This document shows, piece after piece, positions 1,305 to 23,485 of a stretch of DNA of 24,820 nucleotides. Position numbers and translations under genes: made by a program. Within the stretch, counting starts at the first letter, position 1, and each line of letters opens with the position of its first letter. Source of the stretch: a virus (lineage: Duplodnaviria > Heunggongvirae > Uroviricota > Caudoviricetes); the IMG/VR virus record IMGVR_UViG_2711768053_000009; one strand, written 5' to 3'. The notes beneath the pieces were generated by a model. It was not told the DNA's origin. It was given only the letters and a program-made list of their open reading frames with translations, and did not search any database.

Positions 1305-2099
1305 ATGAGCGAGAAATTGAAGATCGTCTATCGCCCGTTACAAAAACTGTCTCCGTATGCGCACAACGCCAGGACACACAGCCCTGAGCAGGTGGCACAA
1401 CTGGTAGAAAGCATTAAGCAATTCGGCTGGACCAATCCGGTGCTGATTGACGAAAAGGGCGAAATTATTGCTGGTCACGGTCGCGTGATGGCGGCTGAGG
1501 CGCTCAAAATGGATTCTGTTCCGGTCATTGTTCTGTCTGGCCTGACGGATGATCAGAAAAAGGCGTACCGCCTGGCAGATAATCGCCTGCCGCTCAACGC
1601 TGGCTGGGATGAAGATCTGTTACGGATGGAGCTGTCGGACCTAATCAATGCTGATTTTGATATCTCCCTGACAGGATTCAGCCCGACAGAAATTGATGAA
1701 CTGTTGACGGATGTTTTGCCCGGTACAGGAAATAATGAGGAGGAACCGTACACGACGAAAATTGATACGCCTGTTTATGAGCCGTCAGGCGATAAACCGG
1801 ATATCAGTGAACTGTACGACGATACGAAAACTCAGGAGCTGGTCAGCCGGATACGTTCGGCGTCCCTTGAGCCTGATATCGAAAAATTCCTCCTGTGCGC
1901 GGCAGAACGTCACACGGTGTTTAATTTCAGCAGAATTGCGGACTATTACGCTCACTCCCCCGCTGAAATTCAGCGCCTTTTTGAGGAGTCGGCGCTGGTG
2001 ATCATTGATTATCAGCAGGCTATTGAAAATGGATTTGTCCGGATGACGCAGCGCATGGTGGAGATCATGCATGGCGGGGAGGAGGAGGAATATGCGTGA
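1305..2099 (+). CDS. ParB-like nuclease domain (ParB/sulfiredoxin N-terminal fold) protein with uncharacterised acidic C-terminal domain
   Basis: N-terminal about 100 aa (YRPLQKLSPYAHNARTHSPEQVAQLVESIKQFGWTNPVLIDEKGEIIAGHGRVMAAEAL...) has the ParB N-domain signature including the G-x-G-R box. The stop overlaps the start of the next gene (ATGCGTGA). Confidence 0.75.
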   Translation: MSEKLKIVYRPLQKLSPYAHNARTHSPEQVAQLVESIKQFGWTNPVLIDEKGEIIAGHGRVMAAEALKMDSVPVIVLSGLTDDQKKAYRLADNRLPLNAGWDEDLLRMELSDLINADFDISLTGFSPTEIDELLTDVLPGTGNNEEEPYTTKIDTPVYEPSGDKPDISELYDDTKTQELVSRIRSASLEPDIEKFLLCAAERHTVFNFSRIADYYAHSPAEIQRLFEESALVIIDYQQAIENGFVRMTQRMVEIMHGGEEEEYA

Positions 2100-3024
2100 T
2101 GATTTTTGCGCCTTTATTCTGACTCACGGGCGTCCGGACAAAGTTCTGACTTACCGGACGTTGCGTCGTGCTGGCTATACCGGGAAAGTTTTTATCGTTG
2201 TTGATGATGAAGATAAAACCCGGCATCAGTACATAGCAGAATTTGGTGAACAGGTGCTGGTGTTTTCCAAAGCCGATATCGCCAGTCGTTTTGACGAAGC
2301 CGATAATTTCGGTGACCGCCGCTCAATTTTTTACGCCCGTAATGCCTGTTTCGACCTGGCAAAACTGGTCGGGTGTAAATACTTCATTCAGCTCGATGAT
2401 GATTATCACGAGTTCCAGTTTCGGGTGGATCGCAACTATGACCAGGCCTATTTTCCGATAAGGAAACTGGATGCGATCCTTTCTGAAATGCTGGCGTACT
2501 ACGAATCAATACCTGCTCTTTCCATCGCTATGTCGCAGGGCGGGGATTTTCTTGGTGACAATGGCGGCCATGCTTCGTGGGTGAAACGCAAGGCAATGAA
2601 CAGCTTTATCTGTTCGGTTGATCGACCGTTCTCATTCATGGGGCGCATTAACGAGGATGTGAATACGTACACGAATCTCGGTCGCTGTGGTGAATTGTTT
2701 ATGACGATCGGTGCTGTCCAGTTAGGACAGAAACAGACGCAGAAAAACAGCGGCGGAATGACCGAGCTGTATCTGGATTCCGGAACCTACGTTAAAAGTT
2801 TTTACTCCGTCATGTATGCGCCGTCGTGCGTAAAAATCTCACTGATGGGTGCCAGCCATAAACGCATTCACCATCAGGTCACCTGGAACAATGCTGCAGT
2901 AAAAATCCTTCACGAAAAATACAGGAAGAAGACACCCTGCATATCAATGGGGGTGACAAATGATTCCGTATTCGAAAGTCGAGTCTCTGGCAGCGTGCCG
3001 GATGACTGCACAACAAATCGCTGA
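2092..3024 (+). CDS. Soluble GT-A fold (family-2-like) glycosyltransferase, substrate unknown
   Basis: ATG at 2092 preceded by GGAGGAGGAGG. Translation has beta1 CAFILTHGRPD, then VFIVVDDEDKT (the hhhVDD motif of GT2 enzymes, residues about 34-44) and YFIQLDDDYHEF (DXD motif, residues about 98-107) at the spacing seen in SpsA-like GT2 enzymes. No C-terminal transmembrane helices, so unlike GtrB. The provided ORF 2071..3024 starts 7 codons upstream. Confidence 0.6.
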   Translation: MRDDFCAFILTHGRPDKVLTYRTLRRAGYTGKVFIVVDDEDKTRHQYIAEFGEQVLVFSKADIASRFDEADNFGDRRSIFYARNACFDLAKLVGCKYFIQLDDDYHEFQFRVDRNYDQAYFPIRKLDAILSEMLAYYESIPALSIAMSQGGDFLGDNGGHASWVKRKAMNSFICSVDRPFSFMGRINEDVNTYTNLGRCGELFMTIGAVQLGQKQTQKNSGGMTELYLDSGTYVKSFYSVMYAPSCVKISLMGASHKRIHHQVTWNNAAVKILHEKYRKKTPCISMGVTNDSVFESRVSGSVPDDCTTNR

Positions 3025-4306: not shown

Positions 4307-5624
4307 AATCTACCTCCCAAAACCTCATGAGGGGCAAATAGCTGCATGGACGGCGGCAATAGAGGAACGCTTCCACGCGGTATGCTGTGGTCGTCGCTGG
4401 GGTAAAACGGTGATGCTGGTGAACATCGCTACCAGTTTCGCTACGCGGAAATTTGCCGTTCCTACCACCGGGCAACTTATCGCGGGTAGGGTGGGGATTT
4501 TTACCGCGCAATACCGCCAGTACCAGGAAATCTGGGATGAAATTAGCGCCGTTCTGCAACCGCTGATCCTCAGTCAGTCAAAAAATGAAAAGCGCATCAT
4601 TCTCCGGAACGGTGGCCGCATCGACTTCTGGGTTACGGACAACAACAAACTGGCCGGTCGTGGGCGTAAATATCACGCTGTGCTGATTGATGAGGCCGCA
4701 TTCACTAAATCGCCGGAAATGCTCGAGGAAATCTGGCCCCGAGCTATACGCCCGACGCTTGTCGATTACCGCGGCTGTGCGTGGGTATTTTCCACACCAA
4801 ACGGTATCGACGAGAGCAATTTTTTCTACGCGATATGCCACGATGAATCCCTGGGATTTGTCATGCACCATGCGCCAACTTCATCGAATCCGTATATTCC
4901 GAAAGAAGAACTGGAGGAAACGGAGAAGAAATCCGATCCGCGCGTCTGGCAGCAGGAATATCTTGCAGAGTTCGTAGACTGGTCCAAAGACGCGTTACTC
5001 GATGTCGATAAGCTGCTGGTGGACGGTCAACCAATTGAGATGCCGCCGTACTGCGACATGATTTTCGCAGTGATGGATACGGCGTTGAAAGGCGGGACCG
5101 AAAATGATGGTACTGGCGTGGTGTATTTCGCTTATGAGTCAACGTATTCGGACGAGCCAAAACTGACGATTATTGACTGGGATGTGACGCAAATTAAAGC
5201 GTCATTGCTTCCTGAATATATCCCCGGCGTTTATGACAACCTCGAGCGCCTCGCGAAATTATGCCGTCCGCGTCTGGGCAGCCAGGGTATTTTTATGGAA
5301 GACGCCGCGATGGGGGCAATCCTCAACCAGAAGGCGGAAACCGAAGGCTGGGATATGACGCCGATTAAATCGGCACTAACCAGCAAGGGCAAAGACGAAC
5401 GGGCGGTGATGGCATCCAGCTACCACTATCAGGGGATGTGCAAAATCGTCCGGGAGGCTTACGACAAGACCGTTTCATTCAAACGCACCACCGCAAACCA
5501 CCTCATAAAACAAATCGCCGGGTTCCACCTGGCAGACAAAGATGCGCATAAACGTGCTGATGACCTTTTCGATTGTTACACCTATGGATTGATCATCGCG
5601 CACGGTAATTACGCGGAATTGTAA
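4296..5624 (+). CDS. Terminase large subunit (ATPase plus nuclease)
   Basis: Walker A CGRRWGKT and Walker B AVLIDEAAF are present; about 440 aa; located between the small terminase and portal genes. Confidence 0.85.
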   Translation: MSIEIYLPKPHEGQIAAWTAAIEERFHAVCCGRRWGKTVMLVNIATSFATRKFAVPTTGQLIAGRVGIFTAQYRQYQEIWDEISAVLQPLILSQSKNEKRIILRNGGRIDFWVTDNNKLAGRGRKYHAVLIDEAAFTKSPEMLEEIWPRAIRPTLVDYRGCAWVFSTPNGIDESNFFYAICHDESLGFVMHHAPTSSNPYIPKEELEETEKKSDPRVWQQEYLAEFVDWSKDALLDVDKLLVDGQPIEMPPYCDMIFAVMDTALKGGTENDGTGVVYFAYESTYSDEPKLTIIDWDVTQIKASLLPEYIPGVYDNLERLAKLCRPRLGSQGIFMEDAAMGAILNQKAETEGWDMTPIKSALTSKGKDERAVMASSYHYQGMCKIVREAYDKTVSFKRTTANHLIKQIAGFHLADKDAHKRADDLFDCYTYGLIIAHGNYAEL

Positions 5625-18544: not shown

Positions 18545-19551
18545 TGCGTTATTACCGACTGGAAATCATTAACCCTAAAACAGGCAAGCCGCCAGTGGAT
18601 AGCAACGGAAATACCATTGGTCCGTTTGATACCAGCAGAACGCCGGGATGCGGGCTACATGTTGAATTTGATGTGGAGGTGGCTGGGCTTGATGTAGTGA
18701 ATTCAGGAACGATGCTCACAATATACGGTTTGCCTATCGACATGCTGAAGCAAAGCGTGAGTTTGCAGGGGTGTCTGGTCCGTATGAAAGCGGGCTTTGT
18801 TGAGGGATTGCCTTTGGCAAATCCACAGCAACAGGGTGAGGTAATTTATGGCGAAATTTATCTGGCCTATGCCAACTGGATCGGCACGAACCAGACCTTA
18901 AACCTGGTAATAAATCCAACCGTACGCAAAACAGATGATGGTAAACCGTTCTCTATCGAGGGAGAGGGGCTTAAAGGGGAAAAGGTTAGTGATGTAATCT
19001 CCCGTGCGTTGCAAAAGGCATTTCCGAATAAATTGATCGACTGCACAGTCAGTGACAGTCTGGTTTTACCAGAGCCGTGGAAGGGAACCTACGACAATAT
19101 TGGGTCGTTGGCGATGGTAGTCCGTAGTGCTTCAATCGCAATGATGCGTAATGAAAGGTATAGCGGAGTCGCTATCAGTATTCTTTCCGACAGGATACGA
19201 ATCTACGATAACGTATCGGCAAATTGGGGTGAGCCAAAAACAATTCATGCCCATGAACTGGTCGGGCAGCCGACATGGATAGCGCCGTTTACCGTCAGTT
19301 TCAAATGCCCCATGAGGGGCGACATAAGATGTGGTGATGTGATCAAATTGCCAGAGGGGCTTTATTCTGGCTCTGCGTCGATCGTGATGGCTAATACAAC
19401 GGCACCCAGCGTTATCGCAAAAAATTCGACCACGTTTACCGGGAAATTTCTTGTGATATCGGTCAGACATATTGGTTCGTATCTGACAGCCGATGGCGAT
19501 GCCTGGGTGACGGTATTCGAGGCATATGCTGAGAACTGGGCGAGGGTGTAA
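18544..19551 (+). CDS. Baseplate hub-like protein (putative)
   Basis: 335-aa ORF immediately upstream of a gpV/gp45-like spike gene; call by synteny with Mu/P2-type baseplates. Confidence 0.4.
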   Translation: MRYYRLEIINPKTGKPPVDSNGNTIGPFDTSRTPGCGLHVEFDVEVAGLDVVNSGTMLTIYGLPIDMLKQSVSLQGCLVRMKAGFVEGLPLANPQQQGEVIYGEIYLAYANWIGTNQTLNLVINPTVRKTDDGKPFSIEGEGLKGEKVSDVISRALQKAFPNKLIDCTVSDSLVLPEPWKGTYDNIGSLAMVVRSASIAMMRNERYSGVAISILSDRIRIYDNVSANWGEPKTIHAHELVGQPTWIAPFTVSFKCPMRGDIRCGDVIKLPEGLYSGSASIVMANTTAPSVIAKNSTTFTGKFLVISVRHIGSYLTADGDAWVTVFEAYAENWARV

Positions 19552-20264
19552 TGTCAAACGCTCAAAAAATACCGTTTCTCCGAACGCTGTCAGAGATGAT
19601 GACCAGTTCTGGTAACCAGCAAGCCGAGCTTAAAGGCCGTGAATTGCCCTGCCATGTTGTCGATGTCAGCGGGCAGATAGTGACAGTTCAGTTTGATATG
19701 CTGCCGGAGGGGATCAACTTTCCGCAGATAACAATCCCTGTCGCCACATTCCCGTATATTCGTTACCCGATACAGCCGGGCGATCGAGGAGTAACAATTG
19801 CCGCTGATGTATCACTGCGCGGTGTGTCTGGATTGGGAACCGGTATGGCGACGCTCTCTTACTCGATGTCGCTCACTCCACTGTTTTTCGTGCCACTGGC
19901 AAACAAGGACTGGTCCGACGAAGATCCGCAAAAAATAGTTTTGTACGGTCCGGATGGCGCGATCCTCAAAACAGAGGACGGCAGTAGCTCGGTAACGGTG
20001 GCACCGGAAGAAATCAGGCTAAAGTCGAAAGCTGTTTACCTCGAGGCCGAAGATATCTTCATGAACGGGAAAATTCATCTCAACGGTCCAATCGTACAGG
20101 ACAAAGAACAAATGAAGGATACAACCGCTTCGCTGATTGGCCCTCTCAAGGTCGAGAAAGATGCAGTTATCAACGGCGTGAGCGCCAGCGGCCACAGCCA
20201 CGATGTGACTGGCGTTCAAAGCGGCGGCAGCACGATCACGTCGAAGAAACCAAATCCGGGTTAA
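19551..20264 (+). CDS. Baseplate spike / assembly protein V-like (Mu gp45-like)
   Basis: The N-terminal segment ELKGRELPCHVVDVSGQIVTVQFDMLPEGINFPQITIPVATFPYIRYPIQPGDRGV resembles the OB-fold region of gp45/gpV spikes. Followed by a terminator. Confidence 0.5.
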   Translation: MSNAQKIPFLRTLSEMMTSSGNQQAELKGRELPCHVVDVSGQIVTVQFDMLPEGINFPQITIPVATFPYIRYPIQPGDRGVTIAADVSLRGVSGLGTGMATLSYSMSLTPLFFVPLANKDWSDEDPQKIVLYGPDGAILKTEDGSSSVTVAPEEIRLKSKAVYLEAEDIFMNGKIHLNGPIVQDKEQMKDTTASLIGPLKVEKDAVINGVSASGHSHDVTGVQSGGSTITSKKPNPG

Positions 20265-20300
20265 TACCGGCTCACTTTAAATTACATCCATAAAGCGAAA

Positions 20301-20332
20301 GTCCCGGCTGCTGCAACAGTTCGGGGCTTTTT
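20301..20332 (+). terminator. Rho-independent terminator after the spike gene
   Basis: Hairpin GTCCCGGCTG / CAGTTCGGGGC (imperfect, with one bulge and G-U pairs) followed by TTTTT. Confidence 0.5.
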
Positions 20333-20479
20333 GTATCAACAGAACAGTATTTGAAATGGCATGGAGATTACTCATGCAGCCAAATTCTAGCGCACCTAAA
20401 GATAAATTTGGAGACGATTTGATGATTAAGGCTGAGACCACTCCGCAAGGAGCAATAAGGCTGCGAGGATAATCGCGGT

Positions 20480-20686
20480 ATGCCGAGGGATTCGTCACAT
20501 ACTTACGCCTGTTGCCTGGATCATTTGTACTGCATTAGTGGCGGGTACATTGATTTACCTGAAAAACTGATAAAGGAGTTACGAGAAATGGGCGAAAGAT
20601 TACCCAACTGGAAATTCCTGTTGATATGGTGTGTGTTTTTCTTATTTGGACTATCCGCTTTGATTCAGGCGATCCGGTGGCGTTAA
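20480..20686 (+). CDS. Small membrane protein, paralog 1 (core 32 aa from ATG 20588; N-terminal extent uncertain)
   Basis: Core MGERLPNWKFLLIWCVFFLFGLSALIQAIRWR has a hydrophobic helix; AAGGAG lies 9 nt upstream of ATG 20588. Paralogous to the gene at 20806..20952. Confidence 0.5.
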   Translation: MPRDSSHTYACCLDHLYCISGGYIDLPEKLIKELREMGERLPNWKFLLIWCVFFLFGLSALIQAIRWR

Positions 20687-20805
20687 TTTTTACATAACTT
20701 TACATATGGCAATGAAAAAACAACAAATTACTTCATGGATGATTTGCTACGTGAACTCAAGCATAGAATGACATGGTGTTAAGTAATTGTTACAAAGGGA
20801 TTGGT

Positions 20806-20952
20806 ATGAAGTTTCTTTTCATTGTTTATAAATTACTAGTTGAGATTCGAGTTATGGGCGAGAAATTTCCCAATTGGAAGTTTTTACTTATCTGGTTGGT
20901 CTTTCTGATTCTGGCGTCTGGATATTTTGTTGGGCAGATCCGATGGTGGTGA
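20806..20952 (+). CDS. Small membrane protein, paralog 2 (48 aa; alternative start ATG 20854 gives 32 aa)
   Basis: MKFLFIVYKLLVEIRVMGEKFPNWKFLLIWLVFLILASGYFVGQIRWW; AAGGGA lies 5 nt upstream of ATG 20806. Versus paralog 1, the conserved N-terminal half differs mostly by synonymous codon changes, which indicates purifying selection. Confidence 0.5.
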   Translation: MKFLFIVYKLLVEIRVMGEKFPNWKFLLIWLVFLILASGYFVGQIRWW

Positions 20953-20959
20953 GGGCACG

Positions 20960-21307
20960 ATGAGGACATGGGGCCGCGTCACCGACGTGAACGGCAATAA
21001 AAAATGGGTTGCTGTAGAATCTGACGCCAACGGTGATTTCTCCTACGGCTGGCTGACGACGCTCATTCAGACGTTAAAGCTGGGGGTGGGGGAGTCGCCG
21101 TTTTATGCGAATTACGGCATTCCAGCACAGCAGTGCATCGTGCAGCAGATTTACCCGGACTACTATGTGAACATGGTTCAGCAACAGTTTGCCGGGTATT
21201 TTGCATCACTGGCAATTTCAAGGGTAGATGGGGCTGAGAACCCCACCTATAACATCGATGTTGTGTTTTTTAATGGGACCAGTTACCGGATGCAGGTTCC
21301 GGTGTGA
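20960..21307 (+). CDS. Baseplate protein, gp25/W-like (Mu gp46 position), putative
   Basis: ATG at 20960 with GGTGAGGG upstream; about 115 aa; lies between the spike and J-like genes. The provided ORF 20927..21307 starts upstream inside paralog 2. Confidence 0.45.
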
Positions 21308-21657
21308 GGCAAATTTTCGGGCATCAGTTGGGCCAGTGGCGTGTTAAGAAGTTCATCGCGTGGCATGACAATCCATCCACTTTTGCGTAGTAAGTGAATT
21401 GCCCATTCTGTGGTGATAACTGAGCCTGATTTGTGGTGCTCAATGTGGGTAACCGAGCCGTTTCTGACGCGCATGATGATGTCAACATTCAGAGGGGATT
21501 GTGTGCTGGTGGTATCTTCGCGCAGCTTCTTCTCGCACTCGATGAAGTATCGGCGGATCTGGCGTCCTTTTTCGTTGCGCTCGACCATTGCCAGTTCTTT
21601 GGCGGTGTCCAGGGTGAGGTGGTAGTCCTTGCGGCGGCGGCCTGGAGTTTTCGCCAA
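21283..21657 (-). CDS. KilAC-domain (phage antirepressor C-terminal domain) protein, probably a truncated remnant
   Basis: Translation ...[42 protein letters not shown] matches the conserved KilAC antirepressor C-domain. The ORF has no ATG before residue 24 (TTG is the only possible start), and an in-frame stop lies 11 codons upstream at 21691-21693. The 3' end overlaps the convergent gp25-like gene. Confidence 0.4.
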
Positions 21658-21697: not shown

Positions 21698-22126
21698 CTA
21701 CTTATTTTCAGACACACATTTTTCAAAATTTTTTATCGAGTCATTGAAAACTGAATTCATTATCTCATAAGTTTTATGATCTATCTTTTTGTCTAGATAA
21801 TCTTTATTGTTTTTCTTTATTTTTTCCTTAGTATCAGTAATGGCTTTTTTACAAATTTGATAATTTATCTGCTGATCGTTTAAACCGCCTCCATTGACAA
21901 TTAGAGAAATAGCTGTATTCATGTCTTGTATATTGTAGGAATAGTGTAATGTGTCATTGGTTGGATGGCTGGGATTATCATAATAAACATTACCGAATTT
22001 CATTAACATTATTCCCGATTTCCCATAAACAGAATCAGATAAGTATGCGGCATTCATATTTCCGGCAGTAAAATTATCAGTATGACATATAAAACGCCGA
22101 CCATATTGAAGCTGTAATTTATGCAT
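21698..22126 (-). CDS. AT-rich cargo ORF encoding the mature part of a putative secreted protein (unknown function)
   Basis: 142-codon ORF in sequence that is visibly far more AT-rich than its surroundings. No convincing RBS at its own ATG. It is in frame with the upstream signal-peptide ORF 22178..22237, separated by a TAA. Confidence 0.45.
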   Translation of the reverse strand: MHKLQLQYGRRFICHTDNFTAGNMNAAYLSDSVYGKSGIMLMKFGNVYYDNPSHPTNDTLHYSYNIQDMNTAISLIVNGGGLNDQQINYQICKKAITDTKEKIKKNNKDYLDKKIDHKTYEIMNSVFNDSIKNFEKCVSENK

Positions 22127-22237: not shown

Positions 22238-22258
22238 AAATTACCCTTGAGATTAACT

Positions 22259-23485
22259 ATGTCAGAAATACCAATTACTATGACCAGTGCGGGTGCGCAG
22301 CCTACGCCACCCAATGATTTGCTTGCGAATCTTATCACCAGGGTTGCTGAAAAAGTACCTGGATATACAGCCAACCTTCCGGCGGGACTTATTACAGACC
22401 TTGCCAGCACGGCAGTCGGGGCGGTGGCATTAATAGATCAGGCGCGGGTTGATCTTATTAACTCCGTAAGCCCATACGGCGCGAATATTCCGTTACTGAT
22501 GCAACTCGGAAACATTTATGGAGCACAGAAGGGATTAAGTACAAATACGGCGGTATACGTGGTGTTTGAGGCGTTGCCGGGATTTGGTATCCCTAAAGGA
22601 TTTGTGGTTGGAGACGGTAACTACCAGTATGCGGTTTCCCGCGATACGGTGGTGCCGGAAAGTGGGCAGACTGAGCCAGTCTACTGTGTGGCCACAACGT
22701 CAGGCTCATGGGCTGTACCGGAAGGGACCGTGACGCAGGTCATTACATCAGTACCCAAAGACCAGCCTGTAAAATGCACGAACCTTACCGCAGGAATGCC
22801 CGGTCAGGAGGCGAAGACGTGGGCATCTTACCGTGCCGAAGTCATGGAGTCCGGCATGTTTGGTGTGCAGGGAACACCGGATTGCTTTAAAGCGATGCTC
22901 AAATCAGTAAGCGGTGTGCGAGAAAACCTGATTTCTTTCCGGCAGTCGTCGCTGGGGAAATGGGTTGCGGTTGTTGGTGGCGGTGATCCGTATGACGTGG
23001 CTTATGCGATTTACAAATCTGTACCGGATATTTCGAAACTGACCAACGATGTAACCAATCCATCCGGTGCGGCAGTGGAAAAACGCACGGTTTCAATAAC
23101 CGTTTCGCCGGACGTTTATCAGGTGCCGTTCGTTATCCCGTCATCACAAAACGTCATGGTGCTAATCACCTGGAACACGGTGTCTGATGATTATGTTGAC
23201 CCGGCGGGTATTGCTATGGCTGTGCAGCAAAACGTTGCTGATTACATCAATTCTATTGAAGTCGGTCACCCGATAAATCTGTTGCGAATCCAGGATATTT
23301 TTACCAGCTCCGTAAAATTGCTGGTTGATGCGACGTTGATCTCAACAATCAGTGTGAGCATTGGCATTAACGGCCATATTGTTCTTCCGGCAAAAGACAC
23401 AAGCCTGGTTTATGGCGATACCTATTCCTATTTTTCGACGGTGGCATCACAGGTTCAGGTCAATAAGTATGCAATATCTGACTGA
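22259..23485 (+). CDS. Baseplate J-like protein (Mu gp47 / P2 gpJ position)
   Basis: About 408 aa; lies between the gp25-like and gpI-like genes. ATG at 22259; the provided ORF starts at TTG 22247. Confidence 0.5.
   Translation: MSEIPITMTSAGAQPTPPNDLLANLITRVAEKVPGYTANLPAGLITDLASTAVGAVALIDQARVDLINSVSPYGANIPLLMQLGNIYGAQKGLSTNTAVYVVFEALPGFGIPKGFVVGDGNYQYAVSRDTVVPESGQTEPVYCVATTSGSWAVPEGTVTQVITSVPKDQPVKCTNLTAGMPGQEAKTWASYRAEVMESGMFGVQGTPDCFKAMLKSVSGVRENLISFRQSSLGKWVAVVGGGDPYDVAYAIYKSVPDISKLTNDVTNPSGAAVEKRTVSITVSPDVYQVPFVIPSSQNVMVLITWNTVSDDYVDPAGIAMAVQQNVADYINSIEVGHPINLLRIQDIFTSSVKLLVDATLISTISVSIGINGHIVLPAKDTSLVYGDTYSYFSTVASQVQVNKYAISD

Follow-up and report, generated by a model that had tools for sequence, protein, structure and literature searches.

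Two small membrane-peptide genes in a baseplate junction of a Rac-like prophage belong to phrog_6632, a family with a conserved RNA leader

The window considered here is the whole of a 24,820-nucleotide (nt) stretch of viral DNA, IMG/VR record IMGVR_UViG_2711768053_000009, which is a Rac-like lambdoid prophage with a contractile tail and is 99% identical to prophages of Escherichia coli W and its derivatives. Between its baseplate spike gene (end 20264) and its sheath-initiator gene (start 20960) lies a junction of 695 nt that holds two small open reading frames (ORFs), pep1 and pep2. Judged by their substitution patterns, pep1 and pep2 are protein-coding genes under purifying selection. An original prediction had pointed to two paralogous membrane-peptide genes at this place, after a terminator-like hairpin and between the spike gene and a gp25-like baseplate gene, and this position is confirmed; the family that it did not recognise proves to be phrog_6632, which both peptides match and which is catalogued with function unknown.

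pep1 and pep2 as coding genes of the phrog_6632 family

Both ORFs are present with the cores that had been read from them: MGERLPNWKFLLIW in pep1, with an ATG at 20588, and MGEKFPNWKFLLIW in pep2, at 20854 inside the ORF 20806-20952. The two copies form a 63-nt direct repeat of 71% identity with a spacing of 266 nt, and the proteins align by BLASTP at 55% identity (E = 2e-12). The argument that synonymous changes mark these as real coding genes holds up when the changes are counted: the first 17 core codons have 9.0 synonymous differences at 8.7 synonymous sites and 5 non-synonymous differences at 42 sites, and over the 32-codon core the proportions of differing synonymous and non-synonymous sites are pS = 0.81 and pN = 0.30. 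Between pep1 and pep2, pN ranges from 0.12 to 0.30 and synonymous sites are saturated; the median ratio of non-synonymous to synonymous rates (dN/dS) for phrog_6632 is 0.18, and an identical protein of the Rac-SA53 type is encoded by seven different nucleotide sequences. Synonymous saturation together with amino-acid conservation indicates that pep1 and pep2 are real genes and old paralogues. A recent tandem duplication was rejected as their origin, since synonymous sites are saturated and the two genes belong to different subfamilies.

The family phrog_6632 is a PHROG of 45 amino acids (aa) annotated as of unknown function; the canonical H-19B protein matches its full profile with E = 1.2e-29. 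pep1 (20588..20686, plus strand, stop 20684-20686) encodes 32 aa (MGERLPNWKFLLIWCVFFLFGLSALIQAIRWR; E = 1.4e-16) and pep2 (20806..20952, plus strand, ATG start) encodes 48 aa (MKFLFIVYKLLVEIRVMGEKFPNWKFLLIWLVFLILASGYFVGQIRWW; E = 3.9e-21), and both share the transmembrane core of the family and its ending, IRW[WR]. Neither these peptides nor the alternative small ORFs gave a Pfam, NCBIfam or PADLOC match. Members that keep the reading frame exist elsewhere, which is the check that the original prediction itself had proposed: tblastn placed the family in 46 phage records and pattern scans in 405 IMG/VR contigs, and the loci fall in nine genera of the Enterobacterales (Escherichia, Citrobacter, Edwardsiella, Brenneria, Pantoea, Symbiopectobacterium, Yersinia, Dryocola and Providencia). 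Among 5426 complete E. coli genomes, 895 (~16%; UTI89 is one) carry the H-19B-type cassette at ≥80% coverage, and every carrier that turned up is a temperate phage or a prophage. When 1.84 billion cluster representatives were searched exhaustively with the profile, 43 matched, all ≤89 aa; with no longer profile match, the possibility that the peptide is a domain of a larger protein was rejected, and by these searches phrog_6632 is a narrow stand-alone family. A word-indexed protein search returned only five relatives, because such short ORFs are rarely called. Source annotations of members read "hypothetical" or "phage protein" only, and the RefSeq annotation of E. coli W leaves pep1, pep2 and a third small gene, pepX (below), unannotated. 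Searches of the full-text literature found no description of the peptide strings, of phrog_6632 or of the cassette, and papers on small RNAs (sRNAs) from prophages of enterohaemorrhagic and enteropathogenic E. coli (anti-sRNAs, Pas sRNAs) place those RNAs elsewhere, the position of PasB excepted. As far as we found in the literature searched, the leader-cassette architecture, its two junctions, the swapped arrays and the derived copies of the window are all undescribed.

Each member has one C-terminal hydrophobic segment with a Kyte-Doolittle value of 2.1-2.5 over 19 residues, flanked by 4-7 Lys/Arg residues on its N-side and 1-2 on its C-side. This asymmetry predicts an N-in, tail-anchored topology, and we regard the phrog_6632 peptides as predicted tail-anchored single-pass inner-membrane proteins. 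The single-pass character anticipated for pep1 and pep2 agrees with the topology analysis, which gives one hydrophobic segment each (residues 11-29 in pep1), and with an AlphaFold2 (AF2) model of pep2 built on a 13-sequence alignment, which has a helix at residues 2-20, a break at Pro22-Asn23 and a second helix at 23-47 (predicted local distance difference test, pLDDT, 82). The architecture is thus a charged cytoplasmic helix of about 20 residues, a proline kink, one transmembrane helix and the IRWW end. In distant members (~40% identity) the best conserved part is the cytoplasmic helix with its juxtamembrane motif, SK[LI]IxE[LI]RxM..L..W[KR]F, and not the transmembrane helix, a pattern that suggests a specific binding partner. 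Compared with the full-length architecture, pep2 keeps K-L-x-x-E-I-R-V-M, W-K-F and the transmembrane helix with its first eight residues replaced, and pep1 retains only Met14 onward.

Met14 is ATG in 16/16 representatives and occurs in nearly all more distant members. GGAG stands 9 nt upstream of it, E10 is GAG in 15/15 and E16 is GAA in 14/16, and codons 2-13 show less synonymous diversity than the remaining codons (0.19 versus 0.42, p = 0.011). The GGAG and the codon bias are compatible with a second, internal start that would yield a 32-aa isoform.

The window copies of the family are derived. pep1 belongs to the SEN34/L108 subfamily and is N-terminally truncated: the first 13 codons and the leader are lost, TAC stands in place of the canonical GTG, and the gene is translatable only from Met14 onward. 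It corresponds to what the canonical 45-aa protein would give as a "short isoform" running from Met14 to the end, with an improved Shine-Dalgarno sequence, AAGGAG (20573..20578, plus strand, 9 nt 5' of the ATG at 20588), that aligns with the conserved internal GGAG ahead of Met14 in canonical members. An intact 45-aa relative of pep1 with a GTG start, in locus L108 (MIDLSKLIKELREMGERLPNWKFLLIWSVFFLFGLSALIQSIRWW), represents the ancestral form, and one pep1 allele has an Arg in the transmembrane segment. pep2 joins a C-terminal half identical to that of the Rac-SA53-type subfamily to a replaced eight-residue N-terminus, MKFLFIVY, and an ATG; it retains the conserved motif KL.xEIRVM...W-K-F, and its Shine-Dalgarno sequence, AAGGGA, lies at 20795-20800 on the plus strand. 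The pep2 protein is invariant across nucleotide variants, and L108 holds a pep2 variant (P0003) of 89% identity.

pepX (20356..20570, plus strand) is a third small single-pass membrane-protein gene, unrelated to pep1 and pep2, identified by its intact copies in relatives and its transmembrane segment. Its likely starts are the ATG codons at 20374 or 20422, and it has no PHROG or Pfam match. E. coli W, STEC1575, TUM1881 and M8 have it intact, with 71 aa or, from internal starts, 49-65 aa; the window has a 1-nt deletion (G) between 20454 and 20455 that shifts the frame, as does the identical IMG/VR contig L020, and the G is missing only in these two. In TUM1881, pepX is the sole small gene in the junction. 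Positions 20480-20570 encode, in another frame, the transmembrane C-terminus of pepX (AARIIAVCRGIRHILTPVAWIICTALVAGTLIYLKN) in the same four relatives, and the pepX frame is kept even where pep1 is absent, whereas the pep1-frame reading of 20480-20587 is not kept. The 68-aa and 59-aa maximal ORFs were therefore rejected as real products, the upstream part of pep1 (20480-20587) being out-of-frame pepX 3' coding region. Of the 48 to 68 aa that had been proposed for the true proteins, the 48 aa of pep2 stands and the 68 aa of pep1 gives way to 32; the similarity seen upstream of the MGE methionine is real, and homologous to codons 6-13 of canonical members. Within the window, pep2 is probably the functional copy, and pep1 is likely a short-form-only derivative or a remnant; pepX is inactivated by its frameshift.

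Leader, genomic settings and variable arrays of the cassette

Canonical members are 45 aa long, start with GTG and always have the same leader upstream. In order, the cassette comprises a terminator-like hairpin, a short stem that sequesters the Shine-Dalgarno sequence, the GTG start, and the in-frame Met14 start with its own GGAG. The leader runs from AAAGCGAAA through a GC-rich stem of 10-14 base pairs (bp) with A-tract and U-tract, ~12 nt, and a 4-7-bp stem to the start, and the 3' arm of the short stem is or abuts the Shine-Dalgarno sequence (AAGGGAGAA). The predicted fold energy of canonical leaders is -29 to -30 kcal/mol (z -3.4 to -3.9), and the Shine-Dalgarno sequence is paired in the fold; in H-19B, UUUCCU pairs with AGGAGA. 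The big stem covaries: pair 13:41 is AU in 13 sequences and GC in nine, pair 19:35 occurs in five pair types, the covariation score was reached by 0/500 shuffles, and slid controls fall from 91% to 40-62% paired. For the second stem, the comparison of H-19B with the other leaders involves shifted columns, and we describe it as the same kind of structure, having rejected strict covariation.

A distant homologue of 44% identity, in locus L110, has the same hairpin followed by a different Shine-Dalgarno-occluding stem, CCUUCUG/CAGAAGG. Conservation of the hairpin ahead of so distant a homologue argues that hairpin, stem and ORF are one ancient unit, of which the window hairpin is, by homology, the first element. 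The window hairpin (A-tract, stem, loop, stem and T-run; 20295..20337, plus strand) was assigned from its fold, its homology to canonical-leader hairpins and the stem covariation; 20295-20334 folds at -18.9 kcal/mol (z = -2.8), the T-run comes next, and pepX separates the hairpin from pep1 and pep2. What had been called the spike gene terminator is a real hairpin, then, but one that belongs to the leader of the small-gene cassette and moves with the cassette to other contexts. Directly upstream of pep1 and pep2 themselves, a pattern scan of the window found no canonical leader pattern. No sense-strand promoter consensus was found in the window junction or in the canonical cassettes scanned, and Rfam gave chance-level matches only for the window junction and three canonical loci. 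On the minus strand, canonical members carry an extended -10-like motif and a symmetric hairpin, again with no Rfam match; the motif is absent from the window copies.

The cassette occupies two main settings. Of 100 loci, ~60 have it between the endolysin gene and Rz, where 1-5 nt separate its stop from the Rz start, and ~35 have it in Rac-SA53/SEN34-type myophages, flanked by the spike gene on one side and a sheath-initiator or J gene on the other. A gene for a 1294-aa virion protein precedes it in Brenneria and Symbiopectobacterium, and endolysins of other families do so in Citrobacter and Edwardsiella. At least three different endolysin families stand ahead of it in all. A specific link to signal-arrest-release (SAR) endolysins was rejected on this ground and because the window prophage has an M15 peptidase. 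Stx2_KH16-043, Evi and PhiR40_1 have empty R-Rz junctions, with the stop codon of R overlapping the start of Rz; among the 77 E. coli records with both flanks in one place, none had an empty V-W junction. A Q antiterminator gene is present in CP-1639 and SPN3UB (inspected around the site) and in Rac-SA53 and SEN34 (inspected in full), and in the latter two the late operon lies on one strand. All four are lambdoid, and in the late operons of lambdoid phages the cassette has sense orientation. We infer from its place that the DUF1133 protein of E. coli W, at the Rac-SA53 Q position, is Q-like.

In both types of junction the cassette alternates or stacks with other small membrane-protein genes. 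The same leader stands ahead of phrog_1115 and phrog_4906 members in O157 JEONG-1266, R and Rz of phage vB_EcoS-569R3 are separated by four small membrane ORFs, and the V-W junction of L108 holds five or six small genes in an order unlike that of the window; locus L104 has four and the window three. As their gene content reads, these junctions are variable arrays, each with its own selection from a common pool of small single-pass proteins.

Several side observations concern these arrays. Members of phrog_1115, 4493, 3246, 4906 and 12997 and a further gene, pepY, occur in the same junctions, often with the same leader (L104 612-1175; L106 1592-1918; L108 2732-3841), and several of these other small families end in AIRWW right before the next gene, which hints at a wider superfamily or at a shared 3' coupling signal (TGGTGGTGA). 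The ~90 nt from the endolysin stop to the hairpin are conserved among lambdoid phages (L003 2316-2400, L005 2330-2420, L106 1437-1510; GCGGTTTGCTCACACGGGCGGATAACACGAAATCCTGCGAAC); this stretch has no ORF and no Rfam match, and could be an RNA derived from the 3' untranslated region that ends at the hairpin. At L110 3598-5076 (GCA_900156195.1) a 704-bp unit occurs twice in tandem, with a third, partial copy at 5009-5076 (68 nt, 84%). Each full unit combines a strong promoter-like site (TTTACA-17-TATCAT) with a pair of terminator-like hairpins, the hairpin of the cassette and an ORF for a small membrane protein, and the units are interleaved with toxin-antitoxin modules of the ParE/RelB type upstream of terminase genes; to judge from these elements, the arrangement looks like repeated late-promoter/terminator units.

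Neighbouring features of the window

The 5' flank of the junction is the baseplate spike (gpV-like) gene (19551..20264, plus strand), an ORF that PGAP calls "phage baseplate protein" in E. coli W and that has a weak match to the GpV apex motif. Between pep1 and pep2 is an AT-rich spacer of 119 nt (20687..20805, plus strand, ~35% GC) that ends with the pep2 Shine-Dalgarno sequence; a scan found neither promoter nor terminator consensus in it. The small genes have a GC content of 35-41%, against ~50% in the flanking genes. On the 3' flank, the sheath-initiator (gp25/gpW-like) baseplate gene (20960..21307, plus strand, 115 aa) matches phrog_7986 and is a PGAP coding sequence in E. coli W. The ribosome binding site of this gene had been placed in the 3' end of pep2, and its Shine-Dalgarno sequence (GGTGGTGAGGG, 20945-20955) does overlap the pep2 stop codon; the proposed gp25-like identity is backed by a profile that matches six solved sheath-initiator proteins (best Pam3 gp21, E = 6e-5).

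A second insertion sits between the W-like and J-like baseplate genes. It consists of a truncated antA/antB antirepressor gene (21283..21657, minus strand; Pfam AntA and PHROG anti-repressor matches, a PGAP pseudogene), which converges on the sheath-initiator gene and overlaps its 3' end, and of an AT-rich ORF (21698..22126, minus strand, 27-32% GC). Relatives have intact antirepressors and other cargo at this site, including a type I restriction endonuclease in RM11911. The baseplate operon resumes with the J/gp47-like wedge gene (22247..23485, plus strand; Pfam Baseplate_J, phrog_6).

At its other end the window starts inside the lysis cassette, with an M15-type endolysin gene (133-516) followed by one for a predicted 60-aa lipoprotein (531-713; lipobox LVGC, phrog_7528); neither this prophage nor Rac-SA53 has an annotated Rz-like i-spanin. 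Positions 1305-3024, located between the lysis cassette and the gene for the small terminase subunit, hold a ParB-like nuclease gene and a gene matching a PHROG annotated as glucosyltransferase, which are probably further cargo. This E. coli W-type prophage region also occurs, at 99% identity, in two assemblies labelled "DH5alpha". The Rac prophage of K-12 is a much-reduced remnant, and these records may therefore be mislabelled strains.

Possible roles and comparison with known systems

We tentatively favour a reading in which the phrog_6632 peptides are accessory inner-membrane effectors of the late phase that act on envelope integrity or lysis timing. Their synthesis would require antiterminated late transcription to pass the hairpin and so be confined to the late lytic phase, alongside expression of the lysis and virion genes: no promoter was found between hairpin and gene, and Q is present in the carriers examined, which together point to expression by antiterminated read-through only. 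The lack of an own promoter and the upstream terminator would fit late lytic expression better than expression as prophage cargo. The stacked repression, by terminator and by occlusion of the Shine-Dalgarno sequence, suggests a product harmful to the host membrane, and the prevalence of the cassette in lysis gene clusters suggests a part in disrupting the envelope or in timing that step. The cytoplasmic helix would bind a partner on the inner side of the membrane that is itself conserved, whether a host or a general one; such a partner is suggested by the conservation of the helix across hosts with unrelated endolysins.

Several points weigh against this reading. The timing of expression is itself deduced from the sequence, the promoter scan was simple and stringent, so that weak or non-sigma-70 promoters would escape it, and L110 has a strong promoter-like site ~350 nt upstream of the homologue, with terminators after the site. 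The family has no holin, antiholin or spanin model match in Pfam, NCBIfam or PHROG, and is without the charged C-terminal tail that holins typically have. The lysis systems found together with it are unrelated to each other (SAR endolysin plus pinholin, GH108, M15), which makes a specific lysis-protein partner unlikely. In the window and its relatives the genes lie far from the lysis cassette, and, as neither window copy has the canonical leader, they may be regulated differently from the rest of the family.

The same cassette can be read from the side of the lysogen. Peptides made there, or early after induction, might block the entry of competitor DNA or modulate a host membrane protein, with the arrays as the product of a phage arms race. 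Superinfection exclusion, or a benefit to the prophage more generally, would be in keeping with hypervariable junctions that swap and stack unrelated small membrane-protein genes, with a GC content that departs from the ~50% of the flanks (35-41%), with carriers that are, as far as found, all temperate phages or prophages, and with the adjoining second cargo insertion of antirepressor and AT-rich ORF. We nevertheless think it unlikely, because no promoter consensus lies between the hairpin and the genes, an upstream terminator with an occluded Shine-Dalgarno sequence is the opposite of constitutive expression, and the commonest site is within the lysis cassette. The occluding leader, the small hydrophobic peptide and the tandem stacked paralogues would suit a membrane toxin of a type I toxin-antitoxin-like system, silenced by Shine-Dalgarno sequestration and by a short cis-antisense RNA, an idea that we hold to be rather improbable. 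The antisense RNA would start at a minus-strand extended -10-like TGCTAAAAT (the reverse complement of codons 3-6), cross the start codon and the Shine-Dalgarno sequence, and end at the symmetric hairpin. Synonymous variation is suppressed in codons 2-13 (0.19 versus 0.42, p = 0.011), S5 is AGC in 16/16 and the third base of codon 4 is always T, which preserves a minus-strand TGnTAnnnT; the motif recurs in the distant L110 homologue (TGCTAGAAT), and the invariant AAAGCGAAA 5' of the hairpin would supply the U-rich tail of a minus-strand terminator. However, in the common contexts the toxin gene would lack an own promoter, the minus-strand site has no evident -35 and was not called by the scan, no Rfam family matches, the window hairpin folds unremarkably on the minus strand (z = -0.6), the motif is lost in both window copies, and the internal Met14 Shine-Dalgarno sequence or a constraint on the initiation region explains the suppressed synonymous variation equally well.

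It may also be asked whether the peptides have any function as proteins, since the stop is always 1-10 nt from the next start, with TGGTGGTGA giving the Shine-Dalgarno-like GGTGGTGA. The ORFs would then serve only for translational coupling, as spacers past the hairpin from which ribosomes restart on the next gene (Rz or the sheath initiator), or they would be decaying remnants here, and in the window pepX is indeed frameshifted, pep1 truncated and one pep1 allele burdened with a transmembrane Arg; empty R-Rz sites are also directly coupled in translation. Purifying selection on amino acids with saturated synonymous sites, the transmembrane helix included, speaks against it, as do the N-terminal motif conserved in members of ~40% identity and the invariance of the pep2 protein across nucleotide variants, and we judge this reading very unlikely.

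A wider proposal, speculative and with only a small chance of being right, is that the phrog_6632 cassette and its alternates (phrog_1115/4493/3246, 4906, 12997, pepX and pepY) form an undescribed class of portable, self-silencing membrane-peptide mini-cassettes. A bidirectional hairpin would gate sense expression to antiterminated late transcription and end a short cis-antisense RNA, a stem would occlude the Shine-Dalgarno sequence, and a dual-start ORF would give long and short isoforms. Recombination at the shared leader would shuffle the units into hypervariable arrays where operons join, and these might serve as a tunable rheostat of lysis timing or membrane depolarisation, or as weapons between competing phages; in the window, a long-only pep2 and a short-only pep1 would represent the isoforms split into separate genes.

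Whichever reading applies, this is a mostly unannotated family present in about one sixth of complete E. coli genomes, including the lysis cassettes of Shiga-toxin phages and UTI89. If the peptides tune lysis or damage the membrane late, as in the reading that we favour, they would add an accessory layer to the holin-endolysin-spanin pathway and hence to the timing of Shiga-toxin release. If they serve instead as toxins or in phage exclusion, a new hotspot of phage-phage conflict would lie in the variable arrays of the late-operon junctions. The system is small and easily tested either way.

Several known systems invite comparison. In lambda S, holin and antiholin arise from a dual start with an upstream "sdi" RNA stem. 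The cassette resembles it as a small membrane protein in the late operon (mostly in the lysis cassette) with two putative in-frame starts and a stem over the upstream Shine-Dalgarno sequence, but the starts of the family are 13 codons apart and not two, and there is one transmembrane helix and not three. Besides giving no match to a holin model, the peptides have only three residues (RWW or RWR) after the transmembrane helix, with the charged segment N-terminal, unlike the charged C-terminal tail of S. The same three residues beyond the helix, and the lack of a lipobox, set them apart from the spanins Rz and Rz1, which are marked by a periplasmic coiled coil (i-spanin) or a lipobox (o-spanin). 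AcrZ, MgrB, MgtS and SafA are small inner-membrane regulators of larger proteins; they too have one transmembrane helix with a short conserved soluble helix, and the conservation pattern of the family likewise suggests a partner, although phrog_6632 is phage-encoded, lies in the late operon and has no homology to them.

With regard to placement, gp15 of HK97 is reportedly a tail-region moron that mediates superinfection exclusion, and is similar in being an inner-membrane protein gene of deviating base composition inserted among the tail/baseplate genes of a lambdoid prophage. Classic morons have their own promoter and a downstream terminator; the cassette, in contrast, has its terminator upstream and no promoter that we found, its stop abuts the next start, and it also lives in lysis cassettes. 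Morons also stand between genes that neighbour each other in relatives (Juhala et al. 2000); for this cassette, empty sites exist at R-Rz and none at V-W among the 77 E. coli records, and the GC content deviates. Type I toxins such as Hok, TisB, ZorO, Ibs and Ldr share with the family the hydrophobic peptide of <60 aa (here 32-48 aa, Kyte-Doolittle 2.1-2.5), Shine-Dalgarno sequestration, tandem paralogues and prophage residence; the family differs in having no sequence similarity to them and no own promoter, in its C-terminal transmembrane segment with a conserved cytoplasmic helix, and in a putative antisense RNA suggested by a sequence motif. On this comparison the cassette departs in defining features from holins, type I toxins and morons, as it has no holin-model match, no charged C-terminal tail and no promoter of its own, and has its terminator on the opposite side; it is closest in apparent working to the dual-start/sdi mRNA of lambda S or to type I toxin mRNAs, in a genomic placement that is moron-like.

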